A stretch of 64,000 nucleotides of DNA, taken from an uncultured Clostridia bacterium. Lineage in GTDB: Bacteria; Bacillota; Clostridia; TANB77; CAG-508. The notes below the pieces were generated by a model. It was not told the DNA's origin. It made no database searches and saw nothing but the letters and a program-made list of their open reading frames with translations. The DNA lies in NCBI GenBank assembly GCA_934130435.1, contig CAKOYB010000002.1, positions 115,609 through 179,608 on the forward strand. Reading direction: 5' to 3'. How positions within the stretch are numbered: position 1 is the stretch's first letter; the number at the start of each line of letters is the position of its first letter. This document shows positions 47,718 through 57,996 of the stretch, piece after piece. The translations under genes were made by a program, and so were the position numbers.

Positions 47718-48710
47718 CTATAATATTTCGATTTTAAGTTTTTCTTCTTGTTCAACAATTTCAATATTATTTACTAATTTTGCTAATTTTTTTATCTTCT
47801 CTATAAACTGTTGTTCAAAATCTATTGAATTGTTTACAGTAATTTCTACTTTTTCATTTTTTTCAATTACTATGTTGATTTCTTTTTGGTCTTTTGAAAT
47901 TATGTATTCAATTATATCCACTAATATATATATAATAGTTTTAGGGTCACACTCCAATGTTAAAAAATCTTCATTTGAATTAATATTTAAAGCAATTTGA
48001 TTTGAATTTAACTTTATTTTAAATAATGAATTTAAAATTTCTTTTAGTTGCCCAACTGTAATCATGTCATATTTATCAATTTCAAGTGTTTCAACCATAT
48101 TCATTAGCTTATCTAAAGCTTCTTTTATGTGACTTGAATACTTAGAAAGTTCTTCTTCAGAATAATTTTCTCTATCTGTTGTAATAGCATCTATTAGTCC
48201 TCCTATTATTATTCCTCTTTCTCTAACTTCTCCTAATAGTCTATACATAAACTTTCCAAAAAATTCATCTTTATACTGTTGTGCATCTATAATTTCTTCT
48301 TGTTTGTATATTGTTTTAAACAAATATGCTGTTTTTAATGCTGATTTTATAGAAAGCATAATATCTGCTGTGCTTTTAGATTTATCTATATATCCTTGGA
48401 TATTTAACTTGTCCATCATCTCATCAGATGGAATTTCGTCTGCATAACCAGTATGTAAAATAACTATTGTTTTTTTATCAAATGTTCTTAATTTATTTAT
48501 AAATTCTTCTCCTGTCATTTGTGGCATAAAAAAGTCAAGTAAAATTAAATCAACTGTATTATTTCTTAAATATTCTAAAGCCTCTTGAGGAATACTTTTT
48601 GTTACCGCTTCTACTCCAATAGTTTTTAAATTTCTCCTTGTAGTATCTAAAACTTCTTGTACATCATCAACAACTAATATTTTTGCGTTTTTATAATCAA
48701 ATTTTTCCAT
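47718..48710 (-). CDS. Response regulator with an N-terminal receiver domain and a C-terminal histidine-kinase-like (degenerate) output domain.
   Basis: REC motifs (VVDD...DLILLDFFMPQMTG). C-terminal region resembles HK N-box segments. No DNA-binding domain. Confidence 0.6.
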   Translation of the reverse strand: MEKFDYKNAKILVVDDVQEVLDTTRRNLKTIGVEAVTKSIPQEALEYLRNNTVDLILLDFFMPQMTGEEFINKLRTFDKKTIVILHTGYADEIPSDEMMDKLNIQGYIDKSKSTADIMLSIKSALKTAYLFKTIYKQEEIIDAQQYKDEFFGKFMYRLLGEVRERGIIIGGLIDAITTDRENYSEEELSKYSSHIKEALDKLMNMVETLEIDKYDMITVGQLKEILNSLFKIKLNSNQIALNINSNEDFLTLECDPKTIIYILVDIIEYIISKDQKEINIVIEKNEKVEITVNNSIDFEQQFIEKIKKLAKLVNNIEIVEQEEKLKIEIL

Positions 48711-48771
48711 ATTTATCCTCCATTATAATTTAATTATATATTAAATATAACAAATAATCAATCAAAAAATT

Positions 48772-56500: not shown

Positions 56501-57996
56501 ATTCCTTTAGATATTAGGTAATTTGCAAAACAATTTGCCTTCTCATTCAATTGCTTATATGTTAATTTTTGTTCTTCAAATACTAAAGCTATACTATTAG
56601 GTGTTTTGTTTACTTGTTCTTCAAATATTTCGTTTATTGACTTTGGTTCATTGCCTATTCCTTTATTAATTCCTAATAATATCTTATCTTTTTCTTTTTT
56701 AGTAATTGCTTCTATTTTACTAAGTTTACAATCTCTTGCTATTACTTGATCCAGTATATGCATAATTCTCAAGTGAATACCTTTTATCTCTTCCTCTGTA
56801 AATTTATTCTCTTGATAATCATAATATATTTGTAATTCTCCGCTATTATCCATATCATAAATATGAATCTCCATGCTATCAGCTATATTTTTATTAAATG
56901 TCCATCTTGTGCAATATTTAATCTTCGATTCATTGCTATCATCCCTTGCATTTTGGTATGATATTACGATATCATATAAATTCCTAGTTATTCCTTTTTC
57001 TTTTCTTACTTTTTCTAATAATTTATTATAAGGATATCTTTGGTGTCTTAGAATAGACATTTGTATTTTCGATACCTCTTTCACGAATTCACTAAAATTT
57101 ATATCCCATTTAATTTTTATTCTATTTGGTAGTGTGTTTATAAACATACCTATTGTATTTTTTTCTTTGGAATTTGTGCGATTTAAAAATGGTGTACCTA
57201 TAATTACATCATCATTGCTTGATACTTTAGATAGGTATATAGAATATAAAGCCATGAACAGGCTATATGTTGAAACTCTATTTACCTTTGCAAAATTATT
57301 TATTCTTTCAGTTTCTTTTTTACTAAGTTTAATTTTTTTTCTGATTGCTTGTGTTTTTGTTTCATTATTTTTATATAGCTTTATTGTTGCTAGATCTGGA
57401 ATTTCAGAAAAAGCATTTTCCCAGTATTCTTTATCTTTTAAAAATCTATTACTTAATTCATATTCCTTTTCTGCTTTAATGTAGTCTGTATATAATGGTT
57501 TATTTTCTGGCATATCAGTTTTAAAAATTAAACTTTCATATATTTCTTTTATTCCATTTGCTATTAAACTATAGCTCCATGCATCAGAAATTATGTGATG
57601 TAAAATTGGAATTACACCACCCGTTCCATCAGGAAGTTGAAACATTACAAATCTAAATAAAACCGATTCTATAATTTCTATAGGTTTATCAGCTTCATCT
57701 TCTTCCAACCTTTTTAATTCTTCAATACTCTTTATTTCTTTTCTTTCAATTTTGTAGTCGCTAAGTTTATCACATATGTATTGCTCTGGATATGTGCCTT
57801 TATTACTTATTTTAATACTTAGAGCCTGATTCTTTTGTATAAAAATTTTTAATGCTCTTTCTAGTATATCTAAATCAATTTTTTCTTTAAAAAATAATGT
57901 ACCACAAACATTATTTATGTTTGTATTTTTATAGTACTGCTCTGTAAGCCATATAGACTTTTGAGGAGCAGTTAATTCATAAAATTTTTTTTCCAT
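50575..57996 (-). CDS. Two-module nonribosomal peptide synthetase with a terminal thioester reductase: C(starter-like)-A-T-C-A-T-R.
   Basis: HHIISDAWS and HHIISDGSS condensation motifs. Two adenylation cores (YTSGSTGVPKG, YTSGSTGKPKG). Two PCP sites (FFDIGGDSL, FFEIGGDSL). C-terminal NAD(P)-binding TGTTGFLGSHIL R-domain. Single 2473-aa ORF. Confidence 0.9.
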   Translation of the reverse strand: MEKKFYELTAPQKSIWLTEQYYKNTNINNVCGTLFFKEKIDLDILERALKIFIQKNQALSIKISNKGTYPEQYICDKLSDYKIERKEIKSIEELKRLEEDEADKPIEIIESVLFRFVMFQLPDGTGGVIPILHHIISDAWSYSLIANGIKEIYESLIFKTDMPENKPLYTDYIKAEKEYELSNRFLKDKEYWENAFSEIPDLATIKLYKNNETKTQAIRKKIKLSKKETERINNFAKVNRVSTYSLFMALYSIYLSKVSSNDDVIIGTPFLNRTNSKEKNTIGMFINTLPNRIKIKWDINFSEFVKEVSKIQMSILRHQRYPYNKLLEKVRKEKGITRNLYDIVISYQNARDDSNESKIKYCTRWTFNKNIADSMEIHIYDMDNSGELQIYYDYQENKFTEEEIKGIHLRIMHILDQVIARDCKLSKIEAITKKEKDKILLGINKGIGNEPKSINEIFEEQVNKTPNSIALVFEEQKLTYKQLNEKANCFANYLISKGISNNDIVGLCLNRSIEVVVAMIGTLKAGAAYLPIDPEYPKDRIEYMANNSNCKLIFVEKNIAEKFEFNGRKEDINNQEIYNYSKENLNKKDNEDNLAYLIYTSGSTGVPKGAMLKRIGLKNLIFAMNKVVKYNEVKSIVAVGTISFDITILEIIIPLMFGMKVIVANNNQKMLPTELDKLIKKHSIEMIAIVPSRMEMLLNENCKEINSLKKILLGGEAFSGKLYEKIKSVSEAEIYNAYGPTEITVASNVAKVKSKNCVSVIGKPLLNVVEFIFDKNMQLQPIGIPGELYIGGPGLFKGYINNKKLTEEKTVNWNGYKLYKTGDIALFDNDGNVDYLGRNDNQIKLRGLRIELGEIENKVMEFPNIASCIVSKIENEGREFLCAYIVGNNINIKELRKFLNASSLPYYMIPQYFVVLKQFTYLPNGKVDRKSLPFPELKTNIKIIKPRDNLDDILINIFQKIFEIGEISIEDSFFDIGGDSLMAIRLSCEIQEKLNAQVSVQDIFSLPTIKELADFIKTKNNVELDKIQKIDEKKQYISSTAEQRIYLASKLDELSLAYNMPGKVIFKGNLDINKLETALNTIIHEQEILRTCFNISEDGKIMQQIVSKYTINLDIQKCDENEIQKYEKEFVKPFDLSKLPLFRVKLLQISKEKSILLFDMHHIISDGSSMQIFVNRLVEIYNNNDIKETEITYKDYCYWENNRLENDKLQKQEEYWLSNFTNNEIPILSLPTDFTRPIVKSFNGNRINAELNEEKYRKIQKICEKYNITPFMFFLSVYYILLSRYSGQEDIIIGVPIANRNQTEFQELLGAFINEMPIRIIADSSMTFRQYIEKVKSISIESIKNGEYPFNKIVEKININKDASRNPLYDVMFVYQNTGEIELKFKDIEATLEYLNDGYSKFDLTLEIVPKERSYILNFEYCTDLFKTSTIDTMKSHFINIIEDIISNPNITIGDIEILSETEKKKILYDFNNNKCNYTKDKTIHKQFEEQVQKNPNSIAVIANGVELTYKELNEKANQLANYIKEKYNIKENDVVVLMTQRTIELIIGQIAILKTGAAYLPIDPNYPNDRIEYILKNSSSKLILTNLENNKNAYTECDTLNIKITNDQVYNNKYNRELSLGNPHNGCYVIYTSGSTGKPKGVVVSHLNVSNFIKGLEKSINLNKKNVVSVTTMSFDIFVVESLATLLYGSKIILANEEEQNIPELLNKLCIENCANVIQTTPSRYGLLLSDEKNSEYLSKMSDIISGGEPITEQLLSRLKKISNAKIYNIYGPTETTVWSTLKELTHEDKITIGKPIINTNIYILNKNKKLLPIGAIGEIYIGGAGVSLGYLNNIELTNEKFTINPYNKEETIYATGDLGKWLPDGEIMCLGRNDNQIKVSGNRVELSEIEKAIQRIESIKNAVVIARADKSGRKYLCAYVVSNERIRYSKVREQLCKTLPIYMIPTQLVQLENLPYTPNGKIDKMALPKPANENADKIEYNPPTTKIQRKLVRIFEDILPTRPIGINDNFFEIGGDSLLAMQLQIRLLNLGKKITYAEIFSNPTIQEMEKIIINSDIYTNITRKNNIQIENNNFKEILDNNLEMPKEIRKKEIGNVLITGTTGFLGSHILENYINNSNGKIYCLIRREAGITPKDKLIKTLEFYFDNKYVELINKRIFIVEADFSKERFGLLEEEYEKLANNVNWVINSAAKVTHFGNYKEFEDINVKGTRNIVEFCSKFNKKLLHISTMSVSGNSIADTYSLSTDKNKEYVYTEGDFYIKQSLENEYVRTKFEAEAIVLDSIKNGTDAYIARMGNLTSRYYDGKFQRNINDNAFMNRLKSFIEIGNVPVSLANEYLELTPIDKAAQVIVLLTMYANKKNRIFHVYNNKFIEVKRFINAIEKNYNKIINILSDEEFSKKLKELLKEKNELILQGIAADLNENETVNYGSNIKLNCDFTTHFLKKVGFEWNEIDEEYLKNMFMYLRKIKFIE

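Follow-up and report, generated by a model that had tools for sequence, protein, structure and literature searches.

The window analysed here is a 64,000-nucleotide stretch of DNA from an uncultured Clostridia bacterium (GCA_934130435.1, contig CAKOYB010000002.1, positions 115,609 to 179,608). It is AT-rich (GC content ∼ 0.27) and nearly all of its coding sequence lies on the minus strand, including three consecutive open reading frames (ORFs) that encode a dimodular non-ribosomal peptide synthetase (NRPS), a seven-transmembrane (7TM) sensor histidine kinase and a receiver protein (Table 1). Sequence comparison shows that this trio recurs as a conserved cassette in a large family of NRPS clusters from gut Clostridia, and it may act as a signalling module in which the kinase senses the product of the NRPS.

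The trio lies between recJ (45852-47543, minus strand) and a tRNA-Tyr/tRNA-Met/tRNA-Gly operon (58288-58585, minus strand), with kinase and receiver directly downstream of the NRPS; the coordinates agree with a first reading made from the letters of the sequence (the original prediction). The NRPS has a GAGG Shine-Dalgarno sequence 8 nt before its ATG. A gap of 9 nt separates its stop codon from the start of the kinase gene, whose own Shine-Dalgarno sequence, AGAGGA, overlaps that stop, and the receiver gene follows after a further 61 nt and is preceded by a GGAGG site. The terminator that ends the operon folds with −30.3 kcal/mol (z = −10.0; 0 of 200 shuffled sequences fold equally well), and a second hairpin marks the upstream boundary right after tRNA-Tyr. 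Both of these AT-rich terminators were missed by a consensus terminator scan and were detected by folding. The tRNA operon has a perfect 12/12 sigma-70 consensus promoter (TTGACA-17-TATAAT, 58608-58636, minus strand) directly upstream of tRNA-Gly. Because the gaps are short, a Shine-Dalgarno sequence overlaps the preceding stop, terminators lie on both sides and the tRNA operon has its own promoter, we regard the three genes as a discrete transcription unit.

Two weak −35/−10-like matches in the NRPS leader (58173-58145 and 58166-58138, 9/12 each) are no better than those in shuffled sequence, and an Rfam scan returned tRNAs only, with no riboswitch or leader RNA family upstream of the NRPS. 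An inverted repeat in this region, TTTGTAACA ... TGTTACAAA (58088-58118, minus strand), is a possible operator; its folding is not significant (z = −1.7) and it may have arisen by chance in AT-rich DNA. Read-through of the modest tRNA terminator from the tRNA-Gly promoter could add to expression of the cassette.

The NRPS has two modules of condensation (C), adenylation (A) and carrier (T) domains followed by a thioester reductase (R). Pfam returned two Condensation (3.9e-189), two AMP-binding (2.3e-158) and two PP-binding (1.7e-26) matches and one NAD_binding_4 match (3.1e-47, aa 2100-2351), at coordinates that agree within ∼ 50 nt with the layout drawn up in the original prediction. The core motifs are all intact, including both A3 motifs, both GGDSL carrier serines and the two condensation motifs and Rossmann motif already picked out in that reading. 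The closest solved relatives of the terminal domain are an NRPS carrier-reductase chain (6vtj, 9e-60), the R domain of AusA (8e-42) and MxaA (2e-25). These matches identify it as a genuine thioester reductase in place of a thioesterase, as had been proposed. C1 stands at the extreme N-terminus with no carrier domain upstream, and its HHxxxD motif is intact. The description of this domain as starter-like was not borne out, since among solved structures it is closest to elongation C domains (TycC 2jgp, 2e-33, then FscG-type PCP-C, bacitracin and LgrA) and the characterised starter C domains score lower (RzmA 7c1h, 6e-19; SrfAA 8f7h, 6e-17; CDA-C1, 2e-14).

A family search with the NRPS gave 1478 matches at E ≤ 1e-50. 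Hundreds of these are ∼ 2475-aa C-A-T-C-A-T-R homologues from human and animal gut metagenome-assembled genomes (MAGs), with 41-48% identity at 99-100% coverage; trimodular versions also exist. The best homologue, in MAG S4R_St_33, is 65% identical, and the exact NRPS is present in three contigs only. Reviews describe a reductase-terminated gut-Clostridia NRPS family known for peptide aldehydes, to which the window's protein belongs on the strength of these homologues, in keeping with the original prediction; the family is thus already known and the window's NRPS is a new member of it. The NCBIfam model NF047350 for AusA, which makes the pyrazinone aureusimine in Staphylococcus aureus, matches aa 370-2468 over its whole A-T-C-A-T-R length. 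However, at 1482.7 bits the window's NRPS falls short of the equivalog cut-off of 2500 bits and is no AusA orthologue; its additional C domain at the N-terminus would cap the amine and block pyrazinone formation. We know of no kinase linked to AusA.

The A-domain specificity codes, whose extraction had been suggested with the original prediction, were read from a MAFFT alignment with GrsA-PheA; GrsA itself gave its published code, DAWTIAAIC, in a self-check. Both codes (Table 1) are common only to the window's NRPS and its 65% homologue. The canonical glycine code is DILQLGLIWK, and the exact codes DILQLGMIW and DILQLGVIW are frequent in the family. The A2 code resembles glycine codes and may select a small, glycine-like second residue, and the uncharged, enlarged A1 pocket may accept a hydrophobic first residue; our confidence in either residue identity is low. 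Since C1 sits at the extreme N-terminus, it must take its donor in trans. The product is therefore usually read as N-acylated, and probably is, the position of C1 being the one basis for this view. The original prediction had combined N-acylation with cyclization to a pyrazinone. This combination does not stand: an aldehyde with a capped amine is unable to cyclize, so that the two are alternatives, and of these it is N-acylation that we retain.

The most likely product is an N-capped dipeptide released by NAD(P)H-dependent thioester reduction, either as an aldehyde or, after a second reduction, as an alcohol. The sequence is compatible with two-electron and four-electron release alike, and MxaA, a relative of the R domain, is an alcohol-former. 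We have moderate confidence in this product class. No acyl ligase or carrier protein is encoded in the cassette (ORF list and Pfam), and a Pfam scan of 20 further ORFs of the window, mostly small and chosen outside the long ORFs at 1-33 kb, gave no phosphopantetheinyl transferase (PPTase), carrier protein or acyl ligase.

The kinase joins a 7TM region to a PAS domain, a DHp helix and a catalytic ATPase (CA) domain. In an alignment of cassette kinases the phospho-acceptor His374 and residues N492/N496, D529/G533 and G555/G557/G559 of the N, G1 and G2 boxes are invariant, as is the membrane motif WTNxxHxL. By these residues the protein is classed as an orthodox sensor histidine kinase with an intact catalytic core. 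Within the window's species the 7TM region is its most conserved part, with 0-1 changes in 232 residues versus 2-11 in the 242-residue core.

In the receiver protein the phosphorylation pocket is complete, and all five of its residues (Table 1) are invariant in 36 sequences. Its C-terminal ∼ 200 aa gave no Pfam match even at E ≤ 10, HATPase_c included, and neither Pfam nor NCBIfam found anything beyond REC in the protein, so no DNA-binding domain. In the AlphaFold model (pLDDT 87) the tail forms a long hairpin of helices and then a small alpha/beta domain. The best full-length Foldseek match is the REC-DHp-CA protein LvrB of Leptospira (8vc9, 5e-14); the tail also matches the REC-less kinases ThkA, HK853 and HprS, and hhalign pairs aa 144-307 with the DHp-CA region of the cassette kinases (83% probability, E 8.8e-6). 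The original prediction of a kinase-like rather than DNA-binding output thus agrees with model and profile comparison. However, the helix has no conserved His, the equivalent position being Gly160, and the N, G1 and G2 boxes are absent. We conclude from the model and the alignments that the output is a degenerate kinase-like domain, predicted to be catalytically dead, with neither His phosphorylation nor ATP binding. LvrB itself shares ∼ 15% identity with the window's protein; PDB and NCBIfam name it a hybrid histidine kinase/response regulator, whereas the window's protein is without the His and the N, G1 and G2 boxes.

Table 1. Coordinates of the cassette, its domains and its borders in the window.
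Feature	Position	Strand	Details
Leader/promoter region of cassette	57997..58258	-	between terminator after tRNA-Tyr and NRPS start codon
Upstream boundary terminator	58259..58288	-	hairpin + U-run right after tRNA-Tyr; −10.3 kcal/mol, z = −3.75
NRPS gene, 2473 aa, C1-A1-T1-C2-A2-T2-R	50575..57996	-	ORF, Pfam, motifs, NCBIfam
C1 condensation	56677..57990	-	∼ aa 3-440; HHIISDAWS at aa 133
A1 adenylation	55162..56625	-	aa 458-945; code DILALGAVA(K)
T1 carrier	54949..55140	-	aa 953-1016; FFDIGGDSL
C2 condensation	53593..54897	-	aa 1034-1468; HHIISDGSS at aa 1161
A2 adenylation	52108..53529	-	∼ aa 1490-1963; code DIVQIGIVW(K)
T2 carrier	51832..52029	-	∼ aa 1990-2055; FFEIGGDSL
R thioester reductase	50578..51708	-	aa 2097-2473; TGTTGFLG at aa 2101; YVRTK (Y-x3-K)
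Sensor histidine kinase, 597 aa	48772..50565	-	Pfam, alignment
Kinase 7TM region	49873-50535	-	aa 11-231; HisKA_7TM 2.5e-37
Kinase PAS domain	49522-49851	-	aa 239-348
Kinase DHp helix (His374) and catalytic ATPase domain	48775-49488	-	HATPase_c 4.5e-15
Receiver protein, 330 aa	47718..48710	-	REC + degenerate kinase-like tail
REC domain	48348-48680	-	aa 11-121; D15, D16, D59, T87, K110
Predicted degenerate DHp/CA-like pseudo-kinase domain	47721-48281	-	aa 144-330; AlphaFold, Foldseek, hhalign
Intrinsic terminator ending operon	47633..47691	-	26-bp hairpin + U-rich tail

Conservation of the cassette across genomes

Seen from the NRPS, a HisKA_7TM kinase lies directly downstream in all five sampled homologues (65% to ∼ 40% identity, di- and trimodular). 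These five stand in five different genomic contexts: beside an HAD hydrolase and ParB/MobL/type IV secretion system (T4SS) genes; beside an HtrA-like protease and Tex; near a phage-type integrase; between sigma-factor and beta-propeller genes on the upstream side and Tex on the downstream side; and beside SMC and SIR2. Seen from the kinase, an NRPS R domain lies directly upstream in 68 of the 69 metagenome loci with at least 1.5 kb of upstream sequence, and a REC-HD-GYP protein lies downstream of the kinase, usually within ∼ 200 nt, in 59/70. For the receiver, GTDB species representatives were searched with the receiver alignment, which gave ∼ 21 full-length homologues (L009-L029; best match 52%), two of them at contig starts. 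All ∼ 19 with enough upstream sequence adjoin an NRPS and a kinase upstream, and ∼ 16 show the reductase domain. Most NRPSs at these loci are monomodular (C-A-T-R) and their kinases carry another sensor (HAMP, no 7TM model). The same trio accompanies more distant REC matches in Anaerovoracaceae and Lawsonibacter. The linkage seen from kinase and receiver upholds the earlier description of the pair as a dedicated two-component system, and we hold the architecture, operon structure and linkage with high confidence.

The receiver partner takes four forms in the family. The commonest is REC-HD-GYP with the canonical HHHEKYDGTGYP motif; in the second, REC stands alone and is followed by a separate HD protein; the third (locus L031) joins REC to a DHp domain with Glu for His and an intact ATPase; and the fourth, that of the window, joins REC to the fully degenerate kinase-like domain. 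No DNA-binding output was found in any receiver partner examined by Pfam or motif across the family, and it is therefore unlikely that kinase and receiver simply regulate transcription of the cluster.

At L031 (9962-11185) the sequence GGIAESV replaces the phospho-acceptor His and HATPase_c is fully intact, so that this receiver, to judge by its sequence, looks transitional between a working kinase and the degenerate tail of the window's protein. BLASTP of the window's tail against it aligned only the REC domains; bringing out the homology of the tail required profile and structure methods. The MAG that carries L031 is labelled Deltaproteobacteria, which looks odd for this cassette.

A family of gut-Clostridia NRPSs releasing peptide aldehydes, with 47 clusters, was reportedly described by Guo et al. 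in Cell in 2017, and the rup cluster of Ruminococcus bromii, with its product ruminopeptin, is said to have been described by Schneider and Balskus in 2018. These clusters, too, have reductase-terminated NRPSs of one to three modules and come from gut Firmicutes. They differ in the receiver, which in the window is REC-pseudo-kinase and in the family usually REC-HD-GYP, a difference drawn at the level of the family and not from direct comparison with the characterised proteins.

Three groups of loci deserve separate mention. MAG S4R_St_33 (GCA_030539215.1; L009, L012 and L029) carries three separate NRPS-kinase-receiver cassettes in one genome; one has a monomodular and another a dimodular NRPS, and in the third a contig end leaves part of the NRPS uncovered. 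The dimodular cassette is the closest relative of the window's and adjoins ParB/MobL/T4SS-coupling genes. At L006-L008, from a very common human-gut species (the receiver homologue P0162 is listed in 692 index blocks), a monomodular NRPS is called as three overlapping ORFs (3810-8017 in locus coordinates), identically in three independent assemblies; this suggests real frameshifts and a decaying synthetase beside an intact kinase and receiver. Finally, a divergently transcribed gene for an HtrA-like Trypsin-PDZ serine protease lies immediately upstream of the NRPS at L005 (8655-9782), L089 (6702-7829) and L090 (5956-7083). It could be a target or a partner of the peptide aldehyde; the gene is absent from the window.

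The original prediction had placed the locus on an island inserted at a tRNA site, and its observation that no integrase is present holds for the whole window. A recent genomic island at the tRNA Gly-Met-Tyr operon, with kinase and receiver as passengers that have no functional tie to the NRPS, would fit the different contexts of relatives (the ParB/MobL/T4SS-coupling genes of S4R_St_33, the phage-type integrase elsewhere) and the absence of the cassette beside recJ in a species with a 72% identical RecJ. In that species the order recJ-relA-MBL-hisS is kept, the other side of recJ carries unrelated genes, and neither the cassette nor the tRNA/RNase R neighbours lie beside recJ; because both are missing, the comparison reveals a synteny break and not a clean insertion. 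Against an island, the composition of the cassette (GC 0.24-0.26; GC at third codon positions 0.14-0.15) equals that of recJ, relA and rnr, its borders have no repeat above 10 nt and no tRNA fragment, and receiver and kinase are present in all sampled strains of the window's species that carry this recJ region. We see no sign of recent import and find the island reading weak. The kinase-NRPS linkage (68/69) contradicts the passenger idea and largely refutes it, and we consider the combination of recent island and passenger genes very improbable.

Mosaic alleles in relatives

Outside two blocks, the 19.7 kb that the dimodular relatives L098 and L107 have in common are ∼ 99-100% identical. The first covers NRPS residues ∼ 430-1100 (window numbering), that is A1, T1 and C2 up to about its 70th residue; identity is 44% for A1 and 28% for T1, versus 98% for C1, 99% for A2 and 97% for R. 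The second covers kinase residues ∼ 121-340, transmembrane (TM) helices 4-7 and the PAS domain, with identities of 82% (TM), 55% (PAS) and 99% (kinase core). L120 and L144 differ in the same two blocks. Conversely, L107 and L144 have the NRPS (86-100%) and the TM sensor (96%) in common and kinase cores that are only 64% identical. The exchange unit of A1, T1 and the first ∼ 70 residues of C2 has sharp boundaries, and as a natural exchange between alleles it is of practical interest for NRPS engineering rules.

In identity matrices of 32 non-redundant loci every NRPS domain tracks the kinase sensor better than the kinase core; for C1, which is 7 kb away, the values are 0.67 against the TM region and 0.44 against the core. 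Within three backgrounds, pairs with different A-domain codes have a TM identity of at most 0.91 and pairs with the same codes of at least 0.97, from few independent events. Across backgrounds, sensor-loop identity averages 0.62 for same-code and 0.41 for different-code pairs, a difference that 0 of 5000 permutations reach, with exceptions and without control for phylogeny. A one-to-one relation between the A1 code and the sensor loop that follows WTNxxHHLFY was considered and rejected, as several code classes have more than one loop type.

The agr and comQXP pherotype loci combine a hypervariable part, comprising the signal-making genes and the sensor of the kinase, with a conserved kinase core and regulator. 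The relatives of the cassette likewise set a hypervariable specificity block against a conserved kinase core and regulator, and their mosaic pattern is suggestive of the same division between specificity block and backbone. The analogy is incomplete: the variable blocks are 4.5 kb apart with conserved NRPS sequence between them, the signal would be non-ribosomal, the association with A-domain codes is imperfect, and the pattern was not observed in the window's own species.

A putative signalling circuit and its alternatives

In the Rpf system of Xanthomonas, which serves diffusible signal factor (DSF) signalling, the gene of the synthase RpfF is linked to those of a membrane sensor kinase, RpfC, and a REC-HD-GYP receiver, RpfG, and RpfC is able to control its synthase by protein contact (PMC7912708). 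The receiver output is HD-GYP and not DNA-binding, and most relatives of the cassette have exactly this REC-HD-GYP partner. The systems differ in that the synthase is an NRPS here and of the enoyl-CoA-hydratase type in Rpf, the window's kinase is not a hybrid, its receiver ends in a pseudo-kinase and not in HD-GYP, and signalling here is hypothetical. The phcBSRQ operon of Ralstonia, which serves quorum sensing by methyl 3-hydroxymyristate or 3-hydroxypalmitate (3-OH-MAME/PAME), encodes, in this order, a synthase, a sensor kinase, PhcR (REC with a histidine-kinase domain, no DNA-binding domain) and PhcQ (REC only) (PMC8578825). The gene logic of synthase, kinase and REC-kinase-like protein matches that of NRPS, kinase and receiver, although the two have no sequence relationship and come from different phyla, the kinase-like domain in the window has neither the His nor the ATP boxes, and the mechanism of PhcR is itself not settled. 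Taken across the family, the REC-HD-GYP, REC with His-less DHp and ATPase, and REC-pseudo-kinase partners mirror RpfG, PhcR and PhcQ.

We propose that the NRPS makes an N-capped, probably N-acylated, lipophilic dipeptide aldehyde, and that the co-encoded 7TM kinase would sense this product or a derivative of it and phosphorylate the receiver at D59. The kinase-like tail, itself dead, would then change partners, which may be the kinase's own DHp domain or another relay protein. Output would run through protein-protein contacts of the pseudo-kinase in the window and through the HD-GYP phosphodiesterase in most relatives, with no direct binding of DNA. Self-sensing is our best hypothesis, with the odds about even, and the module of synthase, sensor and regulator as a whole is as likely to be right as wrong. 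We put forward more tentatively, at somewhat less than even chances, a general version: the gut-Clostridia peptide-aldehyde NRPS clusters may be primarily the synthase arm of a self-contained signalling circuit, whose parts are the NRPS product, the 7TM kinase cognate to it and a receiver without DNA-binding output, be it HD-GYP, kinase-like or stand-alone, with pherotype-like co-diversification of module 1 and sensor. The window would then hold a variant whose output has decayed to a His-less pseudo-kinase that acts as a protein-protein switch.

A different account, essentially that of the original prediction, takes the locus for a protease-inhibitor cluster whose regulatory pair is an ordinary one. 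The aldehyde would be aimed at host or competitor proteases, the kinase would read an unrelated external cue (host, diet or envelope stress) and the receiver would switch production on and off indirectly or post-transcriptionally. According to reviews, the family members that have been characterised act as inhibitors of host cathepsins or of bacterial proteases (GluC); the kinase and receiver are co-transcribed with the NRPS, and RpfC sets a precedent for a sensor that controls its synthase by contact (PMC7912708). However, none of the receiver partners examined in the family has a DNA-binding output, and an external cue leaves unexplained why strains that are otherwise identical have exchanged the sensor along with NRPS module 1, and why the sensor goes with the NRPS rather than with the kinase core. 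We regard this account as unlikely, but as a serious competitor.

The same linkage of NRPS, kinase and receiver would also be expected if the pair served self-protection or feedback, the kinase sensing the reactive aldehyde or damage to the cell's own envelope proteases and the pair adjusting physiology or throttling the NRPS. Peptide aldehydes are reactive electrophiles according to the reviews, and the HtrA-like protease gene lies immediately upstream of the NRPS in several relatives. Yet resistance genes, transporters and proteases are not among the conserved members of the cassette, and none adjoins it in the window. This idea, which we rate as improbable, overlaps with the signalling circuit, since the product is the cue in both, and sequence alone does not separate them.

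Several observations weigh against the signalling circuit. L094, the one exception to the linkage seen from the kinase, has a kinase-receiver pair and no NRPS: a kinase of the window's type and a REC-pseudo-kinase lie there (217-11690) downstream of a gene for a 1816-aa MucBP/SpaA adhesin, a Wzy_C protein and a 505-aa protein. The protease-inhibitor role of the characterised family members needs no self-sensing. On the side of the synthase, solved structures lend C1 no support as a starter domain, A-domain specificity calls are weak, and the PPTase was missing from the extra ORFs scanned. The mosaic alleles were seen in REC-HD-GYP relatives and not in the window's own lineage, the swap events are few and the pairs not independent, Stachelhaus codes are a crude proxy, and L111 has the codes of L098 and L120 with a different sensor loop. 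Co-inheritance of NRPS and sensor could also reflect mere adjacency or block transfer, as the sensor is the 5′ end of the kinase gene. Finally, the structure of the product, its sensing by the kinase, the phosphotransfer and the nature of the output are inferred.

The reductase-terminated NRPS clusters of gut Clostridia rank with the biosynthetic clusters that are most widespread and most highly expressed in human stool. To our knowledge, the products have come to light only through heterologous expression and synthesis, and they have been interpreted as inhibitors of host or bacterial proteases; the benefit of these products to the producer is the question addressed here. The near-obligate kinase and receiver, together with the exchange of the sensor with module 1, lead to the testable hypothesis that the peptide aldehydes are autocrine or quorum signals. 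If so, they would feed cyclic-dinucleotide turnover or a phosphorelay, strain-specific 'dialects' would be expected, and the 7TM kinase would be the receptor. The literature searched, with the two primary papers on the family outside its range, contained nothing relevant on NRPSs or peptide aldehydes together with histidine kinases, response regulators or HD-GYP, and we found in it neither the near-obligate kinase and receiver partners and their lack of a DNA-binding output nor any mention of the pseudo-kinase variant or of A1 and sensor blocks that are swapped together.

Other features of the window

Genes resembling spoIIAA (STAS), spoIIAB (HATPase_c_2) and sigF at 20152-21440 (minus strand) point to a spore-forming Clostridia host. 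The GC content dips to 0.233 at 12001-14000 and 34001-36000, where the AT skew found in the rest of the window is nearly gone. On the far side of the tRNA operon, an ASCH-domain ORF of 106 aa with a GTG start (58796-59116, minus strand) shares 11 nt with the start of the RNase R gene.

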